From assembly GCA_037140095.1 (NCBI GenBank), contig JBAXFD010000001.1, positions 1 through 46,790 of the forward strand: a DNA stretch of 46,790 nucleotides. The letters run 5' to 3'. Source of the stretch: Candidatus Saccharimonadota bacterium (GTDB lineage Bacteria; Patescibacteriota; Saccharimonadia; Saccharimonadales; Saccharimonadaceae). The notes beneath the pieces were generated by a model. The model searched no databases. It worked only from the letters and a program-made list of their open reading frames with translations, and had not been told where the DNA came from. Numbering within the stretch: position 1 is the first letter of the stretch; each line of letters opens with the position of its first letter. Position numbers and translations under genes: made by a program. Shown here in pieces: positions 20,564 to 46,790 of this stretch.

Positions 20564-21070
20564 CTAGTTGTACTTTGACGCGAGGCATTTGTGGATTGCC
20601 TGGCTGAATGATTTTTTGCGACTAATTAGCTCTTCTATATTTTCGCATTTATATTTATCAGAGTCGCATGTTTTGGAATACTCTCGTATAATAATCCCAA
20701 ATTCTTCACCATTCTCAATGCATTTTGACACATATGGCGGCAATGGTACAGGGTCACTGCTATCTGTTATTATATCTAGCCCGTCGTAGATTGTGGCTGT
20801 GCAGATTAAATTGTAAATATTATCTTTTTTTGTTAATCCACCCTCTAGCCCAATCGCTATCAATTCTTCTTTTTCATCGATGGTATTAAATGCATTTCTG
20901 GATCTATTTAGCGATCCGATAGCAGTTTCTTCTTTGGATGTTGGCTGTTCGGGTATGTCTGAACTGACACTTTGCCCTAATATCTCATCATATTTTATAT
21001 TCAAGCTATTTAGGCAATCAATTAATATTTTGAGCTTATCTTCACTTTTAGAGCCTAATACTATTCGCAT
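20564..21070 (-). CDS. DUF84/YjjX-like non-canonical purine NTP phosphatase
   Basis: MRIVLGSKSEDKL...SSDIPEQPTSKEETAIGSLNRSRNA...IAIGLEGG parallels E. coli YjjX (...[22 protein letters not shown]...AIEAG) as I recall it. Confidence 0.6.
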   Translation of the reverse strand: MRIVLGSKSEDKLKILIDCLNSLNIKYDEILGQSVSSDIPEQPTSKEETAIGSLNRSRNAFNTIDEKEELIAIGLEGGLTKKDNIYNLICTATIYDGLDIITDSSDPVPLPPYVSKCIENGEEFGIIIREYSKTCDSDKYKCENIEELISRKKSFSQAIHKCLASKYN

Positions 21071-22270
21071 TTATATTTTCCTCAGCTTATGGTTCATTCT
21101 GTCTTTTTTTGTCTTGAGATATCTATTGCTTGTAGGGTTAGCCGGTATCTCATGTTGTTTTGCGCCTTTGACTATTACCCCTAGTGATTTTAGTTCGGTA
21201 ATCTTGTCAGGGTTGTTAGTTAGTAATACTATGCTTTTTATCTTTAAATCTTCAATTATATCTTTCACGATCTCATAGTTTCTCATCTCACTGGGCATCC
21301 CTAATGCTCTATTTGCGTCAACAGTGTCTAGCCCCTCCGCCTGTAATTTATAGGCTTTTATTTTATTTATTATATTTATGCCTCTGCCTTCTTGGAAAAG
21401 GTACATAATTACGCCCTGGCCCTCTTTGGATATTATTTTAAAGGCCTTGTCTAATTGTTGCCCGCAATCGCAATGCTTGGAATGTAATATATCACCTGTG
21501 ATGCACGAAGAGTGAACTCTGACTAAAACATCATGTTTGTTTTCGACATCTCCTTTTACTAGAGCCAGGTGATAACTGTAATCAACTGATGATTGATAAG
21601 CTGTTATTTTAAAATTACCATATTCAGTTTCTAGCTCGGCTGAGGCGGCTTTCGTATATATTTTGTTATGGGATTTTTTCAAGTAAAGTCCACTAAGTAT
21701 AGACTGGACGACTTCTTGGATATTTGTATCGGCATCTATCGAGAAATCAATGGGACAGTGATTACTAAGGAATTTACTGACGTCATTTAATTCGGCTGTA
21801 AAATAATGATATTCTTCCTCTAGTTCTTTGGTGGAATATTTTTTATTGGTTTTAATTAATACAGAGTCATCAAAAGGGCATAGTTCATTTTCTTTGGAAT
21901 ATTCTCTGTGGCAGATAGGGCAATGGTGCCTGCGCTGTCTTCTGCTCAATGATTTGTCTAGGCTGCTATTAAATTTTACTACTGCTTCAAGCTCGAACCC
22001 ATTTTTGTTTATAAAGTCGAGCATTTTTTCGGCTTCTTGCAAGTGCATTGGATAGCCCTCAATAATTATTGGGTTTTGGTTATCTTTATGGGCCATTAGT
22101 TTTAATGATCGGAATAATTGTTCGGCGCTCTTTGCGTAGTCTGTTTTATGGGTTTGTTTTTTTAATGTTTCACCCCATGATATATACTGGAAGTCAAAGG
22201 CGGATTTTAATATTTGAGCGGCCTTTGTTTTGTTTGACCCTGGCGTTCCTAAAAATAATAATATTTTCAT
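21071..22270 (-). CDS. fusion protein: adenylate-kinase-like P-loop kinase (Zn lid) + GTP cyclohydrolase II
   Basis: N-terminus: GTPGSNKTK P-loop and CPICHREY...CPFDD lid. C-terminus: VRVHSSCITGDILHSKHCDCGQQL...QEGRGINIINKIKAYKLQAEGLDTVDAN...LLTNNP matches RibA, including the three Zn Cys. Confidence 0.8.
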   Translation of the reverse strand: MKILLFLGTPGSNKTKAAQILKSAFDFQYISWGETLKKQTHKTDYAKSAEQLFRSLKLMAHKDNQNPIIIEGYPMHLQEAEKMLDFINKNGFELEAVVKFNSSLDKSLSRRQRRHHCPICHREYSKENELCPFDDSVLIKTNKKYSTKELEEEYHYFTAELNDVSKFLSNHCPIDFSIDADTNIQEVVQSILSGLYLKKSHNKIYTKAASAELETEYGNFKITAYQSSVDYSYHLALVKGDVENKHDVLVRVHSSCITGDILHSKHCDCGQQLDKAFKIISKEGQGVIMYLFQEGRGINIINKIKAYKLQAEGLDTVDANRALGMPSEMRNYEIVKDIIEDLKIKSIVLLTNNPDKITELKSLGVIVKGAKQHEIPANPTSNRYLKTKKDRMNHKLRKI

Positions 22271-23361
22271 GCTAGTTGTTTTTTACTATTTAAACTTTCT
22301 GCTAGTATAATACCACTTAATTTAATCAAATCGCTATCACATATTTTATAATCTAATAGTATAGCAATGACTCCTTTTTTCATGTCTAGCGCTTTATCAA
22401 AATCTGACCAGTCTATGAATGGATGAGTTCTGTCCCAAAATGGTAGTGTAAAAAGTATGCCACTATCTGTTATTTTTTCGTGTAAATATGAAGAATGCTC
22501 GACTATTATAGGGAATATCTTTGAGGGTATTTGTTGTCTGACAATCTCATTAGCAATGACCAGGCTATCCCTGTCCAGGTATGATTTTAGCACGTTATAA
22601 ATATGCTTAAAATTTCTGACATTAACGTTAGTGTACCCATCAATATCCAAGTTATTTATGATTTCTCTTGTTGCTGGGGGTATCCCTAATAGATAGCCAC
22701 CCAGGTTTTTATATCTGGCTCCATGTATGTCTGAAGGGTCAATACCGGTATGTATACCTGACCCAGGTTTGTTTATGCCATTTTGGTATTTTTTAAAGTT
22801 ATTATTTTCAGTGATAACTAGTTTCCGGGGTGGATTTATTATTTTGTTTATTTTATATTTTTCTTTACAGCAAAGTATCGCACCATTTGGTACGGGTAGG
22901 ATTTTTCTTAGGCTAAATATAATAAGATCACCAATGTCTCCTACGTTTTTTGAGAATAATGCGTAGGCGGCGTCTTCTATCACGAAACCACCTTGGTTGT
23001 GAATTGTATCGGTTAATCTCATTAATTTAGACGATTTGTTAACAATGCCAAAGAAATGTGTTAAAAATAATATATCTTTTTCTAATATTTCTTTTGTATT
23101 TATGCCTATGCTTTCAAATGGCGACCCTATTCTTTGAATATTATAAAATTTAACATTAAAGCCTAGATTGATTGCTACTGCTACTTCGTCGCCACAACTA
23201 TAAGCAGGCAATAGGATTCTTTTGTGTCCCATTTCTTTTAGCAAAGAAAGGGCTGCGTATATTGCATTCCTCCCAAATAGGTATTCATGGCAATAAAAAC
23301 GACTGGCAAATGCCTTGCCCTTTAATTTTGTTATTAATTTATTTTTTGAAGTAAAAATCAT
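22267..23361 (-). CDS. DegT/DnrJ/EryC1-type PLP-dependent aminotransferase
   Basis: LLPAYSCGDEVAVAINLG... and VIEDAAYALFSK..GDIGDLIIFSLRKILP (Lys in the SxxK context). The track start 23439 would overlap the upstream gene by 100 nt; ATG 23361 is preferred. Confidence 0.65.
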   Translation of the reverse strand: MIFTSKNKLITKLKGKAFASRFYCHEYLFGRNAIYAALSLLKEMGHKRILLPAYSCGDEVAVAINLGFNVKFYNIQRIGSPFESIGINTKEILEKDILFLTHFFGIVNKSSKLMRLTDTIHNQGGFVIEDAAYALFSKNVGDIGDLIIFSLRKILPVPNGAILCCKEKYKINKIINPPRKLVITENNNFKKYQNGINKPGSGIHTGIDPSDIHGARYKNLGGYLLGIPPATREIINNLDIDGYTNVNVRNFKHIYNVLKSYLDRDSLVIANEIVRQQIPSKIFPIIVEHSSYLHEKITDSGILFTLPFWDRTHPFIDWSDFDKALDMKKGVIAILLDYKICDSDLIKLSGIILAESLNSKKQLA

Positions 23362-24280
23362 ATACCTTCCTCGATAATATGGGCTGGAACTGTAATTTAT
23401 GGATTCGAGTCCCGTCCTCGGTCCCCAACTCACCGTCATTTATAAAGTCTATTCCTTGGCTTGATGCAATCTCGAAAGTAGAGAAGTATAGGTAGTCACT
23501 TGACCCTTTTGCGCCATTAATGGTTTCGTCATTCAGCCCCTTTAATATTGTTGTGCATGATACTCCCTGAGAGATTCTATGATCTATCGACAATAGACCT
23601 ACGGGCATTTTTTTGTAATATAATAGGTGGTTGCTAATATTATTATTGTTCGCGATGGTGGTCTGTTTTAGATAGTTCAACTCTTTATTTTTTCGGTCTT
23701 TTTTGTATATGTGAAGTCGAGTACTGTTCCAATTATCTAGTACAAATTTAGCATCATCTAACATGTCCAAATTAAACTTTTTAAGTTCAAAATCTGGATT
23801 TTTAATTATTTTATTTTTTTTGTAACGAATCTTGGAGAATTTTTTACCTGGTAATTCTGATAATAATTTTGTTGAATAAAAAACTTCGTTTTCGGAACGG
23901 ATGTTTTTTACGAAATCTAATGTTGTTAATTCATTCGTATAATTTGTGGATTGATTCTCACTATAATATTTAATGCTGATTTTATTAAAACTTTTTTTCC
24001 AAGAATTGACTATTTGAGCTAATTCATCGAAGTTTAATATCAATGGGAAAGACATGATTAGCTCATTATCATCGTACGTTATTGGCAGTATACTGCCCAG
24101 TTTGGTCTTTGCTATCATTATATTTGACCCGTAGGATATGTAATAAAATAATAGATCAGGGCTCTGCTCAAAAACTGCCTGCTCTGTATCAATACATTTA
24201 ATGATTAAATCTATTGTTTCTTTGGATTTTTTATTTGAGAAAGATTCTATCAAATCGTTATTTATAGAGATTTTTTTCAT
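23339..24280 (-). CDS. DUF2156-like protein (MprF C-terminal / aminoacyl-tRNA-dependent transferase fold)
   Basis: ...LPGKKFSKIRYKKNKI... and C-terminal ...INDGELGTEDGTRIHKLQFQP fit the DUF2156 pattern (GKKFKKIRN...; N.G...GL..FK..F.P) from memory. The ATG at 24280 overlaps the upstream stop as ATGA. Confidence 0.5.
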   Translation of the reverse strand: MKKISINNDLIESFSNKKSKETIDLIIKCIDTEQAVFEQSPDLLFYYISYGSNIMIAKTKLGSILPITYDDNELIMSFPLILNFDELAQIVNSWKKSFNKISIKYYSENQSTNYTNELTTLDFVKNIRSENEVFYSTKLLSELPGKKFSKIRYKKNKIIKNPDFELKKFNLDMLDDAKFVLDNWNSTRLHIYKKDRKNKELNYLKQTTIANNNNISNHLLYYKKMPVGLLSIDHRISQGVSCTTILKGLNDETINGAKGSSDYLYFSTFEIASSQGIDFINDGELGTEDGTRIHKLQFQPILSRKVYDFYFKK

Positions 24281-25110
24281 GATATCTTTTTTGGAAATAA
24301 TAGATCCATATTTAGGTTGGGCATAAGTAGGTATCTTTCGTATGCGCTTTCGGACCAATATAAGTATGCTTCTTGGTACGACTCATTCAGTGCCTGCGCT
24401 ATGTATGGGTAATTTGTTGCGAGAGCCTCTGTGCGATCTCTAATTTTATCATCTTGCCAGTTTAATATATTCTTATAGAATATTTCGTTCCGACCTTGTA
24501 CTATTTGTTTTTTATCTTCCTCTATGTTGGCAATCGGTATATTTGAACCTCGTTCGCCAATCAAATTATCTAAATTGTTTAATGCACTAAGCTTTTTAAT
24601 TATGAATTGTTTGGGTGATTTATCTAACAAATCTCTATAGTTTTTATCTAAAGATGTGCGAAAATCAGTATCAGATAGTTCGTCAAGATTTTCTATTAAT
24701 AAGTCACTAAAGTAAATTGTAAGGTTTATTTTGCAGCCAGCCGAGCTAAACAGGTGATATAGCTTCGTGAGAGTGTTTATATTATTTTTTGTCGTGTTGC
24801 CGATGACATTGTTGTATCCAATTTGTCCGGCTCCGATCTTATAGGAAGGGCAAAAAACGGAGACTATTTGTATTTCGTTTTTTAATATAATGTCTGATAA
24901 TATTTTATCTAAAGTTCTTGACTGTGTAACCTTTGGCAGAAAACCGAGATTCATCAAATCCATGATGCTACCAAATGTTTTTTGGGAATCTATTAAATAT
25001 TGTGTTTCTTGGTCCGTGAACACGATCTTTTGTCTAGTTTCTTGATGACCGATGTCTAATTTATAGGCTAATGCTTGTGTTTTGGCTGGTATGGTATAAC
25101 AGTTCATCAT
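24277..25110 (-). CDS. hypothetical protein (no recognisable motif)
   Basis: 277-aa ORF that starts 9 nt after the CCA end of the tRNA-like element. No SD. Confidence 0.5.
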   Translation of the reverse strand: MMNCYTIPAKTQALAYKLDIGHQETRQKIVFTDQETQYLIDSQKTFGSIMDLMNLGFLPKVTQSRTLDKILSDIILKNEIQIVSVFCPSYKIGAGQIGYNNVIGNTTKNNINTLTKLYHLFSSAGCKINLTIYFSDLLIENLDELSDTDFRTSLDKNYRDLLDKSPKQFIIKKLSALNNLDNLIGERGSNIPIANIEEDKKQIVQGRNEIFYKNILNWQDDKIRDRTEALATNYPYIAQALNESYQEAYLYWSESAYERYLLMPNLNMDLLFPKKIS

Positions 25111-25119
25111 ATAAAAGGT

Positions 25120-25195
25120 TGGAGCCCAAGGACAGACTTTAACTGTCGACCTCCTGGAAACTTTCCAGTTGCTCTCTCTTCTGAGCTACTCGGGC
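25120..25195 (-). ncRNA. tRNA-like element: canonical 76-nt cloverleaf with non-canonical anticodon loop (non-decoding or pseudo-tRNA)
   Basis: Reverse complement: GCCCGAG-TA-GCTC-AGAAGAGA-GAGC-A-ACTGG-AAAGTTT-CCAGG-AGGTC-GACAG-TTAAAGT-CTGTC-CTTGGGC-T-CCA. U8, A14, A21, G53, T54, T55, A58 and C61 are present; U33 and R37 are absent. Confidence 0.6.
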
Positions 25196-25816
25196 ATGGT
25201 TTAATAAACTGTCTGTAATTATATCACAATATTCTTGGGGGGTTTTCAGTGACATCTCTATTGCCTTAAACCCTAATTTGATCAACTTAGATTTGACCAG
25301 GTTATTATTTAATTCATAGTCCTGATATCTTATTGCAAAGTCTTCGTAGCTATCGCCATCTCTTGTCTTTAAAAGTTCTTTGCAGTCTGGGCAGCAAGTT
25401 TGTTCGGTTGATTGGTAATCGCAATTAGGACAAACTTTTCTGTCTTTTATCCTATCCCATGCGTCTTCGTGGCTAATATTTATGTTAAACACAAATCCCG
25501 GCAATAGGGAATTATCCTCCATTATGTCTTCTAGAACTTCTACTTCTCTTTCAAATTTTGGGAAGCCGTCGACTAAGATTATTTTTTCAGAATTTATTAT
25601 TGGTTTTTCTATCAACTTTTTTATTATCGGTTTTGGGTATTCTTCTAAATTATTTATATAGCTTAGCAATTTTTTACCAAATTTAGTTTTTAGCTCAATT
25701 TCCTGTCTGGCTAATTTACCTACGGACAAGTATTCTATGTCTTTTGGTAGCAGATTTGCTGCCGTGGTTTTTCCTGCGCCAGGGGCTCCGTATAATATGT
25801 TGATTTCTGACATCAC
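25139..25816 (-). CDS. adenylate kinase family protein (Zn-lid type)
   Basis: GAPGAGKTT P-loop and lid CPNCDYQSTEQTCCPDC. The last 18 codons plus the stop are the 5' part of the tRNA-like element read in frame. Confidence 0.7.
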   Translation of the reverse strand: MMSEINILYGAPGAGKTTAANLLPKDIEYLSVGKLARQEIELKTKFGKKLLSYINNLEEYPKPIIKKLIEKPIINSEKIILVDGFPKFEREVEVLEDIMEDNSLLPGFVFNINISHEDAWDRIKDRKVCPNCDYQSTEQTCCPDCKELLKTRDGDSYEDFAIRYQDYELNNNLVKSKLIKLGFKAIEMSLKTPQEYCDIITDSLLNHARVAQKREQLESFQEVDS

Positions 25817-26331
25817 TATTCCTCTGTCTTGTCTGTATCGCCTAGGACTCTTTCTATAGCAATAATTTTAAAGACGTCCGTGTTACCGTTACCTATGGTG
25901 AATTCGTCTCCAATCGTTTTGTTAATCATAGCTATTGCTATAGGAGCATCATAGGATATTACGTCATTGTCATAATCAGATTCTAGTGCCCCCAATATAG
26001 TTAAAGTATCCACGTCACTAGCATCATTAATGTTTTGGTAAGTTACCTTACTGCCGATCCAAACGACTTCCTTTGACTTAGTAATGAACTCTTCAGAATT
26101 TTCTACTAATATGGCAGATGCACGCATACCTATAAGCCTTTGTCGTTCGGCTGGGAGCTCTTGGTGAAATCTTGCCCTTATTTCCTTTGCAATTATGTTC
26201 TCTGGTAAGTCAGGATCATCAGCACAAGCTTCGCCCAATTCGCGCCGCAAATCTTTAACCTTTTTATCATGATTGTCTATTGAGGTTTCGAGTTTTTCTA
26301 GCCCTTTTTTTGTAAAGTAAACGCCTTCCAT
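25816..26331 (-). CDS. GreA/GreB/Rnk-family transcription factor paralogue
   Basis: N-terminal coiled coil with DLPEN (compare GreA DLKENAEY) and a C-terminal domain ...ISYDAPIAIAMINKTIGDEF (compare GreA ISVNSPIARGLIGK). Confidence 0.7.
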   Translation of the reverse strand: MEGVYFTKKGLEKLETSIDNHDKKVKDLRRELGEACADDPDLPENIIAKEIRARFHQELPAERQRLIGMRASAILVENSEEFITKSKEVVWIGSKVTYQNINDASDVDTLTILGALESDYDNDVISYDAPIAIAMINKTIGDEFTIGNGNTDVFKIIAIERVLGDTDKTEE

Positions 26332-26392
26332 ATCGACCTTTCTGCACTAAAAGTTGTATATATTAATATACTATAATAAATAACGTTAAAAA

Positions 26393-27322
26393 TCAAGGAT
26401 AAATAGTTAATTGACTAATTGCAGAATCACCAGCGCTACGTTCTTGCATTTTTTTAGTGATCTCTGATAGATCATTTTCATCGCATAATATCCTTAAGTC
26501 TCTTTTTATTTCTTCGCTGTTTGGCGTATGGACGCCTTGCCCGGCATAAAACAGTAGGGGTATATTTACAGAGTTGTGGACCCCATTAGAGGCTATATCG
26601 CCGCTGACAAGATGCCTATAAGCACCTATGGGATCAAGCGCAATAGATGACTGTGGTGATATCGATGAACCATTGATATGCCCTGCAAGTGACTTGTATG
26701 ATATATCTCCCCTCAGCGTGTTTGCCGAATAGGTTCCTTGTTTACCTCTCAGTGTACCAGACAAAAAATCACTTATAGGTAAATTGTTATCAAGATTAGA
26801 GGATGATTGGTTGGTAACTATAATTAGCTCAGATTCTTTATTTATATAATTTAGTGTTCGGGTTGGGAAGTCATAATAAGAGTCGGGCATGGCTATAGCA
26901 TGGGGGTAGAGTGACATATATTGATTTAGGCCAACTCTAATTTTTTTGTTAAATATGACATCCAGACCATTTAGTTCTAGGAGTTTTTTGCAATCGTCGG
27001 CTAATGTTAAAATCTCTGGCCTGACCAGAACTAGACCTATTCGATTTATGTCTAGTGATTCAAGACTAGCTTCTGCAGATAGTAATGACTCTGCCATATC
27101 GTCTTTGACAGATAATAATTTTTTATATTGTCTATTACGTATCAGTGAAGATATAGCTACGCCATAGATAGTATCAGCTAATACCTCATTTGCCTCTATT
27201 GCCTTTTTTGTTGGCAGAGAGCCTTCTATAGATTGTTCAATAAATTTATCATCATATAGATCAAGCATTATATCCATATTGGATTCATGCATATTTTTTA
27301 GATTGTTAGGTATATTTTCCAC
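26393..27322 (-). CDS. hypothetical protein with divergent nucleoside-diphosphate-kinase-like region
   Basis: IGLVLVRPEIL..., TLRGDI..., ...SGDIASNGVHNS and GVHTPNSEE are reminiscent of NDK (RGDF...N.IHGSDS). The start is uncertain (GTG 27322 or ATG 27292). Confidence 0.4.
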   Translation of the reverse strand: MENIPNNLKNMHESNMDIMLDLYDDKFIEQSIEGSLPTKKAIEANEVLADTIYGVAISSLIRNRQYKKLLSVKDDMAESLLSAEASLESLDINRIGLVLVRPEILTLADDCKKLLELNGLDVIFNKKIRVGLNQYMSLYPHAIAMPDSYYDFPTRTLNYINKESELIIVTNQSSSNLDNNLPISDFLSGTLRGKQGTYSANTLRGDISYKSLAGHINGSSISPQSSIALDPIGAYRHLVSGDIASNGVHNSVNIPLLFYAGQGVHTPNSEEIKRDLRILCDENDLSEITKKMQERSAGDSAISQLTIYP

Positions 27323-27437
27323 AATTTAGTAATCTCTCTATCTTTTATATAGATTATATAATATAAACTACTTTTTAGCCACAGCAGTTATTATTCTTGA
27401 TGAGATTTGTTGCAGCAATTATGATTTTATTCGGAGT

Positions 27438-27911
27438 TTATTCTACGTTCTTGATTAACAGGCTATAGTTATTAAATGAGATATCACTATTAATTTTTTT
27501 GCCAATCAGTGCGGTTGCTATGGGTGATTTGCGGCTAACTACTAATGCGCCGTCAATTTTTTTACCAGTGTTTATGGACCAGTCACCAGCGATGAAATAA
27601 TCTGTGGGTTTCTGTGTATCGTTATTTATGACCTGGACTGTTGATCCAATTCCAACTGTATTCTTCTTTTGTTTGGGCATACTAATTGCACAATTATTTA
27701 ATATTCGTTTTAGCTTTTGGCGTTCAGCGGATAACAGCGATTGATGGTCACGGACTGCTTCAAATGGTGCATTGTCATGGTAGGTCTCAGACGTTTGGTT
27801 AAAGACTTCGTAAAACCTTGGCCCCAGATCTAATATTTCTTGGTCAATTTCAGCAATTCGCTGGCGAGCGGCAATTTTATCAGATTCCAGGATTAATAAA
27901 TCTTGTTTCAT
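27438..27911 (-). CDS. GreA/GreB/Rnk-family transcription factor paralogue
   Basis: 157 aa with ...YHDNAPFEAVRDHQSLLSAERQ (compare ENAEYHAAREQQ) and C-terminal ...VSRKSPIATALIGKKINSD. Confidence 0.7.
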   Translation of the reverse strand: MKQDLLILESDKIAARQRIAEIDQEILDLGPRFYEVFNQTSETYHDNAPFEAVRDHQSLLSAERQKLKRILNNCAISMPKQKKNTVGIGSTVQVINNDTQKPTDYFIAGDWSINTGKKIDGALVVSRKSPIATALIGKKINSDISFNNYSLLIKNVE

Positions 27912-27920
27912 ATAGAATAA

Positions 27921-28400
27921 TTAAATCACACTTTTAAGGCTATTAATATTTATATATTCAACCAAAAAGTTTAATTCTTCTGGTAGTTCGGCAGATATAA
28001 ATTCTTTTAAAATATAAATTTTCTTTTTGTTAAAATATTGGGCACTGGCGATTTCTTTCATTGCGCCCCAGGCGTAACCTATACAAATAAACATATCACA
28101 TTGGCGATTAAATTCATCGGCTTGACGGTCCCAATCGCCACAAGATATTACCGTGCCAATTTTAGTATTCAAATATTCTTCGTGTCCACTTTCAATAGTC
28201 GGTATTATCAGTGATATTTTTTTACCACCAAATTCTAGGTATTTATTGCCGAAATATTCCAAAAGCGAGTCTTTGTCTGGGGTTAGAATTATTTCATTGC
28301 CAGAATCGGCCAAAATCTGGGCGACAGCATTAATTAGATGTTTTCTTGCATCAACATCCTGCCCATAGATTTTATTTGGACCAATTATTCCTATTTTCAT
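27921..28400 (-). CDS. LOG/SLOG-like Rossmann-fold nucleotide-binding protein (TIGR00725-like)
   Basis: MKIGIIGPN..., ...FGGKKISLIIP... and ...CDMFICIGYAWGAMKEIA follow the LOG/DprA-like layout. The PGGxGTxxE motif is only loosely kept. Confidence 0.45.
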   Translation of the reverse strand: MKIGIIGPNKIYGQDVDARKHLINAVAQILADSGNEIILTPDKDSLLEYFGNKYLEFGGKKISLIIPTIESGHEEYLNTKIGTVISCGDWDRQADEFNRQCDMFICIGYAWGAMKEIASAQYFNKKKIYILKEFISAELPEELNFLVEYININSLKSVI

Positions 28401-28407
28401 ATCAGAC

Positions 28408-28779
28408 TTAAACTATATTTAGCGCTTCTTTGACCTGTTGGACAACTTGGCGGGGGGTTAGATTGGCTTTGACAATATAACTGTTGACACCCAGGTTTTT
28501 CAGGGATTTTGGAGATTCTTCGATGCCTACATTGGTCAAAATGATTACCGGTACGGTTTTGCCCCATGTGCTTTTGCGGATGATTGCTAATGCTTCATCG
28601 CCATTCATTACTGGCATTTGCAGGTCTAATAGGACGATATCGGGGTTGAAAGATTCTACCAAGGCGACGCCTTGTTGCCCGTCCATCGCTAGCTGAGTTT
28701 CGAAACCATCGGCTTCAAATTTCATGCGATACATTTGGCTAATTACTGGGTCGTCTTCGATAATTGCAATCTTTGTCAT
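28408..28779 (-). CDS. single-domain response regulator (CheY-like receiver)
   Basis: IAIIEDD..., DIVLLDLQMP (phospho-Asp) and ...SYIVKA (Lys). No output domain. A TATTAT box lies 6 nt upstream of the ATG. Confidence 0.85.
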   Translation of the reverse strand: MTKIAIIEDDPVISQMYRMKFEADGFETQLAMDGQQGVALVESFNPDIVLLDLQMPVMNGDEALAIIRKSTWGKTVPVIILTNVGIEESPKSLKNLGVNSYIVKANLTPRQVVQQVKEALNIV

Positions 28780-35258: not shown

Positions 35259-36488
35259 ATGGCTGACGGAAAATCTAAAGATAACAACGAAAAAAGTTTT
35301 ACGCCTATTGAAAAATTAGAATTGAATGCAGAACGTCCTGCAGTTGATTTTAATAGCTATGCCGAGATATGTAATTACAATAACGACAGTTCTAGGCGTC
35401 GTGGGATATTATCACCAGAAATGTATGCTGATATTATTCAGGATGATAGTACTGGTTTTATAGAATCAGATGGGGTGCAAATACCAGCGTTGATAGACAT
35501 TAAACATGGTCTAGCTATGGGTTACGATGCCGATAAATGTAAAAAATATGCCGAGGAAATATCTGATAATGTAAAAATTTTATCCGTTCCGTTCCACGAA
35601 TTGGATGAATCAGAAAAAGAACAGGTTACAAAATTATTGCAAGAAAATGGTAAATGCGCGATTTATTTTTGCGATCACGAGAATGATGAATCTATGGCTT
35701 TGGGCGAATATTTGAAAAAACATGATATAGAATTTTCTGAAAAACCATTGATTGATACGAGAGCCGCAGCAGGAGACGAGCAGGCAGCGTTGTCTCTATA
35801 CTCTTGTTTTGTTGAAAATACAAATGAGTATTCAGGAGACAAGCCTGTTGATTTACGCGATATAAAAGATTATTTTGATAAAAATATTGGTCCAGTTATT
35901 TCTGATAGTGGTAAAACGGCAACAACTCTAAATATGGGAGACAATATCTCTGATGATGAAGCTGATGAGATGTGGAAAATATTTAATTCTAGATTTGATT
36001 TTCTTGGGGAGAACCACCCATTATCAATGCAGGATACAAAGGATGATTTTTTATTACCGCTAAGGTCAAAAGATTCAATTATAGCAGCCACATATAATAT
36101 AGATGAAGATGGGTCGGCAAGACAGCTGGTTTGTTTTACTTATTTTATAAATAATGTAGACAGTTTATATTGGCTTAATAGTAAATATATAGAGCAAGAG
36201 TTTATAATAGATTCTGGTAAAAGGAGTGGTGTTATTAATATCTATACACCAGGTTTAGTTTCTTCTGCAGTTGGGGCTAGCTATGCGTCATTACCGATTG
36301 GTCTATTTACGACCGTATGTGATTCAGCGGGTATCAGTGACAATGTATTATATGAGAACACTAATTTTTCTAAGAGATATATACCTAGGATTGTTGATCG
36401 AGCAACAAGTAGAGCGTGCAAGGGGTCTCTTTATCACAAATCTAAAATCATTGATGAAGTTACATATCGTTTGTGGTCTATAAGCTAA
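35259..36488 (+). CDS. hypothetical protein
   Basis: 409-aa ORF starting 2 nt after the decarboxylase stop (same operon). No motif recognised. Confidence 0.5.
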   Translation: MADGKSKDNNEKSFTPIEKLELNAERPAVDFNSYAEICNYNNDSSRRRGILSPEMYADIIQDDSTGFIESDGVQIPALIDIKHGLAMGYDADKCKKYAEEISDNVKILSVPFHELDESEKEQVTKLLQENGKCAIYFCDHENDESMALGEYLKKHDIEFSEKPLIDTRAAAGDEQAALSLYSCFVENTNEYSGDKPVDLRDIKDYFDKNIGPVISDSGKTATTLNMGDNISDDEADEMWKIFNSRFDFLGENHPLSMQDTKDDFLLPLRSKDSIIAATYNIDEDGSARQLVCFTYFINNVDSLYWLNSKYIEQEFIIDSGKRSGVINIYTPGLVSSAVGASYASLPIGLFTTVCDSAGISDNVLYENTNFSKRYIPRIVDRATSRACKGSLYHKSKIIDEVTYRLWSIS

Positions 36489-37473
36489 GTGGTTTTATAG
36501 TCTTTTTCTCTAAAAAGCGGGAAGGTGGTAAATGTTCTTTGAAGCTCCTTAAACCCTCTATGCCAAGATCTTGTTCAATGTTTATTTCTCCAATATTATC
36601 TTTTTCTAGTATTTTTGATAGTTGATAAACTGTGAAATAGAAGATGTATTTTATAGAATAATCAACTTTTAGATGGTTACCCCCAGCGGTATCATTATCT
36701 AAGTAAGAGACTAGACCCAATGAGGTAATTTTACCATTTATTTTTATTATTAAAGCCTTCTTGCCAAATTGTGAGGCGTATTTCATATTATTTTTTATGG
36801 CAATTGGTTCATTGATATTATTTGCCGCTGAGAATGGGTTATTATTCATAGGCATTGTCTTTATGTGTTTTAGGAACGCTTTTTTGATTTGATTATTAAA
36901 CTTTTTATAGTAAAGTATTTCTATTTTATCCTTTGCGTGTTCTTTTTCGAATAGTTTAATTCTTCTGCGTTGGTCACTAAAATATTTACCATTCATCAAA
37001 CACTGCTGACGTGTATCTAATATATATTCATAGCTATCACGATCATCTTCTATAATCCATTTATTTTTATCTAGTTTGTCGCATATTTTTGAAGGTATTT
37101 CACGGATCTCAAGTGGTAGGTTATGTTGTTTTAAATATTTCATTATATCTTCAATAACTTTGTCGCTAATGGAATTAGCAATCGGGATTATGTTAAACTT
37201 ATTGTCATTTAATACATTAGTATATTTGATTATCAAAGTATCATTTAAATCACTGATCATTAAGTCATTTTTCATATTAAGCCAAGCTATCATATTCTCT
37301 GGATGTAAGTCAGCGTAAGGGTTTATACCTTGACTTATATAATATTCATAATACCAATCACTGTCTTTGATGGTAAAAGGTCTGAATTTTGGAAATTTTG
37401 GTATTGTTTTGGCCATTTTATATTTGTGATATTCTGTTATTTTACCGAATTGCTTATGTATACACGGTAGCAT
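36478..37473 (-). CDS. DUF2156-like protein (MprF C-terminal / aminoacyl-tRNA-dependent transferase fold)
   Basis: FRPFTIKDSDWYYEYY...YADLHPENMIAWL... and C-terminal NIEQDLGIEGLRSFKEHLPPS fit the DUF2156 pattern. An alternative start is ATG 37416. Confidence 0.55.
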   Translation of the reverse strand: MLPCIHKQFGKITEYHKYKMAKTIPKFPKFRPFTIKDSDWYYEYYISQGINPYADLHPENMIAWLNMKNDLMISDLNDTLIIKYTNVLNDNKFNIIPIANSISDKVIEDIMKYLKQHNLPLEIREIPSKICDKLDKNKWIIEDDRDSYEYILDTRQQCLMNGKYFSDQRRRIKLFEKEHAKDKIEILYYKKFNNQIKKAFLKHIKTMPMNNNPFSAANNINEPIAIKNNMKYASQFGKKALIIKINGKITSLGLVSYLDNDTAGGNHLKVDYSIKYIFYFTVYQLSKILEKDNIGEINIEQDLGIEGLRSFKEHLPPSRFLEKKTIKPLSL

Positions 37474-46735: not shown

Positions 46736-46790
46736 GGTCTCATCGTCTAACGGTTAGGACACCAGGTTTTCATCCTGGCAACCCGGGTTC
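46736..46790 (+). tRNA. tRNA-Glu (anticodon TTC), 5' 55 nt only (truncated by window edge)
   Basis: GGTCTCA-TC-GTC-TAACGGTTA-GGAC-A-CCAGG-TTTTCAT-CCTGG-CAAC-CCGGG-TTC... The window ends in the T-loop. Confidence 0.7.

Follow-up and report, generated by a model that had tools for sequence, protein, structure and literature searches.

The closest described counterparts of the RNA considered here are the non-proteinogenic tRNA-Gly isoacceptors of Staphylococcus aureus, in which G18G19 is replaced and which are expected to stay off the ribosome or EF-Tu (PMC4052509). We analyzed a 76-nt tRNA-like element encoded on the reverse strand at positions 25120-25195 of a 46,790-nt stretch of DNA, here called the window, from a Candidatus Saccharimonadota bacterium (assembly GCA_037140095.1, contig JBAXFD010000001.1, positions 1-46,790 of the forward strand). 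The element lies within an operon with the order GreA-like factor, kinase, tRNA-like RNA, a protein that we call X, DUF2156 protein, DegT-like protein, kinase-GTP cyclohydrolase II fusion and nucleoside triphosphatase (NTPase). We lean toward the view that it is a dedicated, non-decoding paralogue of tRNA-Thr that would be excised, charged by threonyl-tRNA synthetase (ThrRS) and used as aminoacyl donor or substrate by X and/or the DUF2156 protein. Like the S. aureus tRNA-Gly that are donors for FemXAB, it would be an extra isoacceptor that has kept synthetase identity, has lost G18G19 and is partnered with GNAT-fold transferases. The S. aureus tRNAs keep a normal anticodon loop, whereas the element appears to have threonine identity together with a degraded anticodon loop (A33, U37). 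It differs further in lying inside the operon of its putative enzymes and overlapping an open reading frame (ORF), in its patescibacterial host, and in having DUF2156-type and aminoacyl-tRNA synthetase (aaRS)/cyclodipeptide synthase (CDPS)-like partners rather than Fem proteins. The features on which the argument turns are as follows.

25120..25195, reverse strand: tRNA-Thr-like RNA gene, 76 nt; AGU at the anticodon position; A33, U37, no G19, A56; CCA encoded
25139..25816, reverse strand: adenylate-kinase-like P-loop kinase with a Cys4 lid (Pfam ADK, 8.5e-19)
24277..25110, reverse strand: protein X, unannotated family, ~280 aa, always directly after the element
23339..24358, reverse strand: predicted DUF2156-type tandem-GNAT aminoacyl-tRNA transferase, likely start at 24280, ~315 aa

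The protein partners also have described relatives. DUF2156 is the catalytic domain of aminoacyl-tRNA transferases (PMC7334510, PMC8913301). The DUF2156 protein of the operon shares fold and PF09924 with MprF/L-PGS/A-PGS, ErdS, FemX, VlmA, PacB, DhpH/K and Orf11/Sbb17, which are users of housekeeping aminoacyl-tRNAs, and it is unlike these tandem-GNAT transferases in being soluble, of ~315 aa and without a flippase domain. In a 2026 review of aminoacyl-tRNA-dependent natural-product enzymes the terms "tRNA gene" and "dedicated" are absent (PMC12945691). Protein X is modeled with the Rossmann-type fold of CDPSs, class Ic aaRSs (TyrRS/TrpRS) and PvcA/PIsnA, from which it is set apart by the lack of detectable sequence similarity, by TM-scores of ~0.4-0.5 and by forming a small family of its own. 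CDPSs take the aminoacyl group from aminoacyl-tRNA. The combination of a specialized tRNA with unusual arms, a kinase and a pyridoxal 5'-phosphate (PLP)-fold enzyme in one unit resembles the tRNA-Sec/PSTK/SepSecS system. PSTK and SepSecS act on Ser-tRNA-Sec, and tRNA-Sec decodes UGA; unlike that system, the kinases of the operon are of the adenylate-kinase type, and their action on RNA would be an analogy only. There is also a resemblance to cis-acting RNAs, since a Thr anticodon-like G35-U36 stands directly before a start codon, as in the Escherichia coli thrS operator (PMC9976931), and since a tRNA shape lies between cistrons, as in the tRNA punctuation of polycistronic transcripts. Unlike the thrS operator, the element comprises a whole cloverleaf, including the acceptor stem and U73 and often an encoded CCA, is not situated before thrS and is a conserved, gene-like unit. 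Literature searches returned no description of this RNA or of this operon.

The 76-nt sequence quoted in the preliminary description, which had been made from the letters of the window, is the exact reverse complement of 25120-25195, and the cloverleaf features, conserved bases and encoded CCA listed there were all found. The stems are those of a 7/4/5/5 cloverleaf, with one G-U in the acceptor stem and an A27.G43 mismatch in the anticodon stem, and the expected bases U8, A14, A21, G53, T54, T55, A58 and C61 are all there. In the anticodon loop the sequence is AAAGUUU (A33, U37), position 56 is A and G19 is absent. Folding to the minimum free energy (MFE) gives a cloverleaf-like structure (-28.9 kcal/mol, z = -2.98) with the zipped anticodon arm, of 6 bp with a triloop, that had been anticipated. 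The detection programs are divided. Default ARAGORN makes no call at 25120-25195 and Rfam RF00005 has no match to the window copy at the gathering threshold or at E<=10, whereas ARAGORN at the 95% threshold (-ps) calls tRNA-Thr(AGT) exactly at 25120-25195 with a possible-pseudogene flag. Over 40 dinucleotide shuffles of the whole window, ARAGORN made false calls in 0/40 at default, 1/40 with -ps and 11/40 with -ps90. By itself, the window copy is suggestive but not compelling as an RNA gene; it is because of its relatives, and not of the window copy alone, that the element is more than a chance cloverleaf.

The kinase-like protein has only three close homologues among 5.8 billion proteins; the tail ARVAQKRERL..FQEVDS is common to all three, one of which continues beyond it, and their DNA contains the 76-nt element nearly unchanged, with default ARAGORN calling tRNA-Thr in L001-L003. 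A D-arm pattern, in which positions 5-25 were forced to match, was found in 6 of 185,579 species-representative genomes; one of the six (L009) is a duplicate of L004, and each of the five new loci lies in the operon. The same pattern gave nine loci in metagenomes and zero hits in viral contigs, and nothing thus points to a phage origin. Two pattern hits were discarded, L014 because it has no cloverleaf and L011 because it belongs to an unrelated tRNA array. The L011 array is a metagenome contig with 14 tRNA genes, including duplicates, at 88-2489 on the reverse strand, and its "tRNA-???" at 1403-1475 has the same G19-less type of D loop (AGGAGAGA) and a shortened anticodon arm. A further set of loci was gathered through protein X and not through the RNA, which avoids the bias of the pattern. 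The loci chosen in this way, L021, L022 and L023, also carry the element, and L021 and L022 have G6, which the DNA pattern cannot match; their D arm is nonetheless identical. The genomic loci, all from metagenome-assembled genomes (MAGs), bear the record labels Patescibacteria, Paceibacteria, Paceibacterota, Saccharibacteria, unclassified "bacterium" and, once, "Nanoarchaeota". Among the genomes with the operon are GCA_038323465.1, JALHYA01, JBAZJH01, CAYRPO01, JAKAHT01, GCA_027348785.1 and Amesbacteria GW2011_GWB1_47_26. The "Nanoarchaeota" label belongs to L005 (JBBSXF010000060.1), all other carriers being Patescibacteria, and may reflect either an error of binning or classification or a cross-domain transfer of the operon.

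The family alignment (A4) contains 14 distinct copies from Patescibacteria-type MAGs and metagenomes. Cloverleaf pairing is satisfied in 98.6% of the cells of these 14 copies, and falls to 31-47% when the partners are slid by 1-3 columns. Two-sided changes occur at eight pairs, including all five pairs of the anticodon stem. Under a family covariance model (R1), members reach 92-103 bits, with one copy per locus and the window copy at 94.9 bits, and ordinary tRNAs no more than 69 bits. The element of the window is 94.7% identical to that of L004 and 89.5% identical to that of L001, against 55-62% in the 300 nt on each side. The kinase gene is upstream of the element in 13 of the 13 loci with upstream sequence, X is downstream in 14/14, and a DUF2156-like gene follows X in nine of the ten loci with enough sequence, L021 being the exception. 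The element is therefore a real, conserved, structured and strictly syntenic RNA gene.

The overlap with the kinase gene separates constraint on the RNA from constraint on a protein. The kinase ORF of the window ends ...ARVAQKREQLESFQEVDS*, and its last 57 nt, made up of the stop and the 18 codons before it, belong to the element as well. In the subgroup with an ORF that overlaps the element, 12 of 12 substitutions in the overlapping frame are non-synonymous. Each of them is either located in a loop or compensated (31:39 G-C to A-U, 27:43 A.G to C-G), and one converts the kinase stop, a TAA in the T loop, to a sense codon. Comparing compensatory with codon-like change, as had been recommended, thus comes down clearly on the RNA side, through covariation as well as through the non-synonymous changes. 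The kinase stop is inside the element in at least 8 of the 14 lineages, three of which read at least 57 nt into it, and lies before it in others. In five lineages the stop is U8-A9-G10 itself (TAG, "...MPE*"), at these positions:

L006, 3032-3041
L007, 5025-5034
L010, 4689-4698
L021, 5852-5861
L022, 5952-5961

Read in this way, the substitutions place the constraint at the RNA level and not at the protein level. The varying position of the stop and the non-synonymous changes indicate that the 18-codon tail is a by-product of the RNA gene, in agreement with the preliminary description, which had the ORF merely running into the element. The functional kinase protein probably ends near 25196. Gene callers carry the upstream kinase ORF through the RNA gene. 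An excised RNA would leave a kinase mRNA without a stop, which implies a trade-off between the two products.

On the 3' side, the start codon of X is 0-20 nt past the 3' end of the element in 13/14 loci (L022 was not read), often with no space for a Shine-Dalgarno sequence, and in the window the CCA end precedes the next ORF (start at 25110) by the 9 nt first reported. 3' processing would give a nearly leaderless X mRNA. Junctions between element and X are at the following positions.

L004, 1825-1828: 0 nt, start codon directly after CCA
L021, 5927-5931: 2 nt
L023, 5996-6003: 4 nt
window, 25108-25119: 9 nt

What has been kept and what has been relaxed within the cloverleaf indicates the kind of tRNA from which it came. 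Threonine identity consists of acceptor-stem pairs and anticodon nucleotides (PMC9976931). Across the 14 copies the acceptor pairs from G1-C72 to C4-G69 are invariant, as is U73, and G35-U36 is present in 14/14 (A4). The identity set of E. coli tRNA-Thr is G1-C72, C2-G71, G35 and U36. To judge from these positions, the element is plainly derived from tRNA-Thr and appears to retain the identity elements of the cognate synthetase. In the T stem, 49-65 is invariantly G-C and 51-63 is U-A or C-G, and the variable loop is AGGUC in most copies. The positions that vary, and the D loop, are as follows in the 14 copies.

Position 34: A in two, C in five, U in six, G in one
Position 33: A in five, G in one, U in eight
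Position 37: U in ten, C in one, A in three
U33 and A37 together: 2/14 only (L006 and L016)
Anticodon arm: 6-bp stem or 8-nt loop in 3/14
D loop: AG[A/C]AGAGA in 14/14, hence no G19
Position 56: C lost in 5/14, the window copy included
After U73: C74 invariant; CCA in seven, CAA in three, and CUA, CCG, CAC and CCU in one each

The genuine tRNA-Arg and tRNA-Lys of the window have G18G19, U33, a purine at position 37, C56 and an encoded CCA. Decoding features of the family thus look relaxed while the acceptor stem and G35-U36 are kept. The self-complementary loop and the A/A at positions 19/56, which had been singled out in the window copy, are on the alignment a peculiarity of its sub-lineage and not features of the family.

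The most constant partner of the RNA, protein X, has no match in Pfam and no sequence match in the PDB. Its family comprised 21 clusters in one search and ~105 representatives among 1.84 billion in another. The AlphaFold2 (AF2) model of X (pLDDT 93.4) retrieves with Foldseek the isonitrile synthases PIsnA (9dh4) and PvcA (3e59) at E ~6e-5 and TMq ~0.5, also TyrRS (6bqy) and TrpRS, and CDPSs (6ez3/6y4b) at E ~1e-2 and TMq 0.40. X thus models as a Rossmann fold of the class Ic aaRS, cyclodipeptide-synthase or isonitrile-synthase type. Its similarity to CDPSs is at the level of the fold, with no match to the sequence family, and X is not placed among the CDPSs. HIGH/KMSKS-type motifs were not identified in the X alignment, and X is without an anticodon-binding domain. 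Residues F86, C87, P88, S89, Y90, D136, E140, E254 and R259 of X do not vary. X is fused to a DUF2156 domain in L001, P0060, P0062 and P0070, to ADK in P0077 and P0079, and to NDK in P0101 (NDK-X). The fusions imply that X works with both the transferase and nucleotide kinases, and those with kinases suggest that X consumes a nucleotide made on the spot.

The second gene downstream of the element does encode a DUF2156 (PF09924) protein, as first read from the window. The window protein itself scores marginally, at 28.6-28.9 bits against a cutoff of 27.5; PF09924 is matched by 6/7 family members, with a best value of 2e-10. Its AF2 model (pLDDT 91.7) retrieves the DUF2156 domains 2hqy and 5vrv, FemX, L-PGS, A-PGS, MprF and the aminoacyl-tRNA-dependent peptide synthases Sbb17/Sba18 with Foldseek at E 1e-10 to 1e-13 and TMq 0.60-0.68, so that at the level of the model the tandem-GNAT fold of DUF2156 transferases is confirmed for the 23339-24358 protein. 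A second soluble protein of the DUF2156/LPG_synthase_C type, of 331 aa, is encoded at 36478-37473 on the reverse strand in a very low-G+C stretch, adjoining a histidine kinase gene and an ornithine/diaminopimelate-decarboxylase-like gene. It was rejected as a close paralogue of the DUF2156 protein of the operon (BLASTP E = 1.9) and is unlinked to the element.

The remaining genes of the conserved block, with the GreA-like gene that adjoins it, are these.

22267..23439, reverse strand: DegT/DnrJ/EryC1-like protein, PLP aminotransferase fold; in the window copy a weak NCBIfam match only
21071..22270, reverse strand: adenylate-kinase-like domain fused to GTP cyclohydrolase II (Pfam GTP_cyclohydro2 5.8e-62, plus ADK)
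20564..21070, reverse strand: NTPase_I-T (DUF84, inosine/xanthosine triphosphatase family; Pfam 2.7e-17, NCBIfam)
25816..26331, reverse strand: GreA/GreB-like factor (Pfam and NCBIfam matches)

Orthologues of the DegT-like protein in L020 and L022 have precomputed PF01041 hits. The kinase-GTP cyclohydrolase II fusion passes the TIGR00505 cutoff and is conserved in all operon loci, and the NTPase_I-T gene, with its synteny kept, is the last gene of the block. A GreA_GreB gene adjoins the operon, on either strand, in almost all of the loci, namely in L001, L004, L020, L021, L023, L024 and the P0002 contig. Within the block from 20564 to 28000 the G+C content is 32-38%, against 40-47% in the flanking region with FolD and phosphoketolase. 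The low G+C is consistent with the block having been acquired horizontally in its entirety, although searches for mobility genes and repeats came up empty. PADLOC defence models gave only P-loop noise on ten proteins of the operon and its neighborhood, promoter-like sites were uninformative (48 against 38 +/- 7 expected), and the terminator scan gave none near the element.

Just upstream of the operon there are two GreA/GreB-like paralogues, a SLOG-cluster-4 protein and a stand-alone response-regulator receiver. A 309-aa protein without a family match is encoded upstream of the GreA-like gene, at 26393-27322 on the reverse strand; a 305-aa counterpart has the same position in the P0002 contig and may belong to the system. 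The four genes upstream of the operon are at the following positions.

25816-26331, reverse strand
27438-27911, reverse strand
27921-28400, reverse strand
28408-28779, reverse strand

At the other end of the window, a tRNA-Glu(UUC) gene at 46736-46790 on the forward strand is truncated where the window stops. The overlapping 57-kb contig contains it in full (L025, 8861-8935), as the only tRNA gene beyond the window. No other tRNA-Thr was seen in the 46.8-kb window plus ~9 kb of this contig.

Our model for the function of the element can be set out in steps. The RNA would be transcribed within the operon transcript and excised by the normal tRNA-processing enzymes. The housekeeping ThrRS would then charge it with threonine, a step that we propose because the acceptor-stem pairs and G35-U36 are kept. 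The aberrant anticodon loop and elbow would keep the charged RNA from translation, and its aminoacyl group would be passed to the operon enzymes X and the DUF2156 tandem-GNAT transferase. These would act on a nucleotide-derived acceptor, whose synthesis would fall to the kinase, the GTP cyclohydrolase II and the NTPase. The conservation of acceptor stem and D arm goes well beyond what charging by ThrRS should by itself demand, and the two parts probably mark the RNA for private enzymes; these frozen parts would be the handle by which the enzymes recognize their own tRNA. The steps from excision through ThrRS charging and ribosomal exclusion to threonine transfer are inferred, as is the identity of the acceptor. 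The core of the preliminary description, a non-decoding tRNA-like RNA tied to an aminoacyl-tRNA transferase, is supported by the family as a whole. Its notion of a carrier dedicated to the DUF2156 enzyme is still the best explanation as far as the carrier is concerned, and requires two amendments: the most constant partner is X, the DUF2156 gene being absent from L021, and the RNA is specifically a derivative of tRNA-Thr. A more elaborate version of the model is possible, although we would advance it only tentatively. The element would be a ThrRS-chargeable, ribosome-orthogonal tRNA within the operon of a previously undescribed tRNA-dependent biosynthesis of Patescibacteria; the aminoacyl group, possibly modified on the tRNA by the kinase and PLP-fold enzymes, would be moved by X and the DUF2156 protein to a nucleotide scaffold derived from GTP cyclohydrolase II, and excision would also divide the transcript and fix the relative expression of the genes on either side.

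Several observations weigh against a dedicated carrier of this kind. Nine of the 14 copies pass the Rfam tRNA threshold and the loops of L006 and L016 are canonical, so that some copies could still decode. In L021 the element is kept while the DUF2156 and DegT-like genes are absent, and the DUF2156 protein cannot therefore be its sole or obligatory user. L024, a distant variant of the operon with X, GTP cyclohydrolase II, NTPase, ADK and GreA, has no element. Excision would cut the kinase mRNA before its stop in those lineages, at least 8 of 14, in which the stop is internal to the element, and this needs explaining. The best structural neighbors of the X model are PIsnA and PvcA, at TM-scores of only ~0.5, and these isonitrile synthases are to our knowledge not tRNA-dependent and use free amino acids. 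Two of the loci deserve a further remark. An Acetyltransf_3 GNAT gene follows the NTPase gene of L021 (8729-9301) and could functionally replace the tandem-GNAT transferase. L024 (5362-9380) has a divergent GreA, a 500-aa X fusion and a stand-alone GTP cyclohydrolase II, with no DUF2156 or DegT-like gene, and may represent an ancestral, tRNA-independent core.

Other explanations have to be judged against the same evidence. The element might act only in cis, as an RNase P/Z site that splits the mRNA and leaves X almost leaderless and/or as a ThrRS translational operator before X, and never be an aminoacyl donor. We consider this unlikely. In its favor are the short distance, 0-20 nt, to the start of X with often no Shine-Dalgarno room, the internal kinase stop in at least 8/14 lineages that couples processing to kinase translation, the lack of a terminator-like site near the element, and the established mechanism by which ThrRS binds a tRNA-Thr anticodon mimic before a start codon (PMC9976931). 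A processing signal, however, does not need the conserved G35-U36, and an operator made of the anticodon arm needs no invariant acceptor stem, U73 or C74, nor the CCA that is encoded in 7/14 copies. ThrRS is not encoded in the operon, and the aminoacyl-tRNA-using folds of the neighbors would be a coincidence. A cis-acting role is in any case compatible with a dedicated carrier and not exclusive of it. Decidedly improbable in our estimation is a specialized tRNA whose amino acid is transformed before use, or which X charges with an amino acid other than threonine; by analogy, the P-loop kinase and the DegT-like enzyme would act on the tRNA-bound residue, with transfer by X/DUF2156 thereafter. 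Two ADK-like kinases and a DegT-like PLP-fold enzyme are indeed syntenic with the element, X has an aaRS-like modeled fold and is fused to kinases in other genomes, and the invariant D arm and acceptor stem suggest dedicated proteins beyond ThrRS. Yet the argument is purely analogical: the kinases are of the NMP-kinase and not of the PSTK type, X with its ~280 aa is without the anticodon-binding domain and identifiable HIGH/KMSKS-type motifs of a synthetase, and nucleotides are the kinase substrates that the presence of GTP cyclohydrolase II and NTPase suggests.

Some bacterial operons include tRNA genes along with protein genes, and the element might simply be a normal tRNA-Thr isoacceptor of this kind that serves in decoding. 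This is in our view very unlikely; it is most conceivable for L006 and L016, with their U33 and A37, and least for the window copy. Default ARAGORN and RF00005 call nine of the 14 relatives tRNA-Thr, and these nine, with RF00005 scores of 52-63 bits, would enter annotations as ordinary tRNA-Thr; every anticodon is of the form NGU, and the genuine tRNAs of the window genome likewise encode CCA. Against this, 6/14 copies have A or G at position 33 and 11/14 a pyrimidine at position 37, 3/14 depart from the canonical anticodon stem or loop, none of the 14 has G19 and C56 is lost in 5/14, exactly the five copies that Rfam misses. Neither detector calls the window copy at default settings. Although the locus is orthologous, its wobble base has drifted to any of the four nucleotides. 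The genes of the operon use all four ACN codons (ACA 48, ACT 25, ACC 21, ACG 14), more than one NGU tRNA with A34 or C34 would be able to read, so that an AGU tRNA would not suffice as the sole tRNA-Thr. Nor is the element the standard tRNA-Thr of the clade, since its D-arm pattern occurs in so few genomes, the six loci of which one is a duplicate, and only with this rare operon; and its invariance in acceptor stem and D arm is far above what is usual for such distant genomes. There remains the proposal that the element is the decayed remnant of a tRNA or attachment site from an old integration event, or else a chance cloverleaf in the tail of a protein-coding gene, to which we attach a negligible probability. 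The contrast in G+C between the block (32-38%) and its flanks (40-47%) and the possible-pseudogene flag of ARAGORN speak in its favor. The genes on both sides are, however, syntenic with the element in all lineages, compensatory changes and high element identity reveal active selection, the window contains no repeat of the 3' part of the element, no integrase-type gene flanks the block, and the protein tail is absent in most lineages. The old integration site that was among the first suggestions for this locus is therefore rejected on the strength of synteny across deeply diverged genomes, purifying and compensatory selection, and the absence from the window of a 3' repeat and of an integrase.

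Annotation pipelines record most copies of the element as ordinary tRNA-Thr and miss the rest, and tRNA inventories are in consequence inflated or distorted. If the element is a dedicated, non-decoding tRNA-Thr, it would be, as far as the literature searches show, the first pathway-encoded tRNA that does not decode and is dedicated to aminoacyl-tRNA chemistry outside the cell wall. It would be naturally orthogonal to the ribosome, and thus a natural example of a tRNA partitioned from translation. Protein X would represent a new enzyme family, probably handling aminoacyl-tRNA or amino acids. Together they would provide a handle on a metabolite pathway in the metabolically minimal Patescibacteria.

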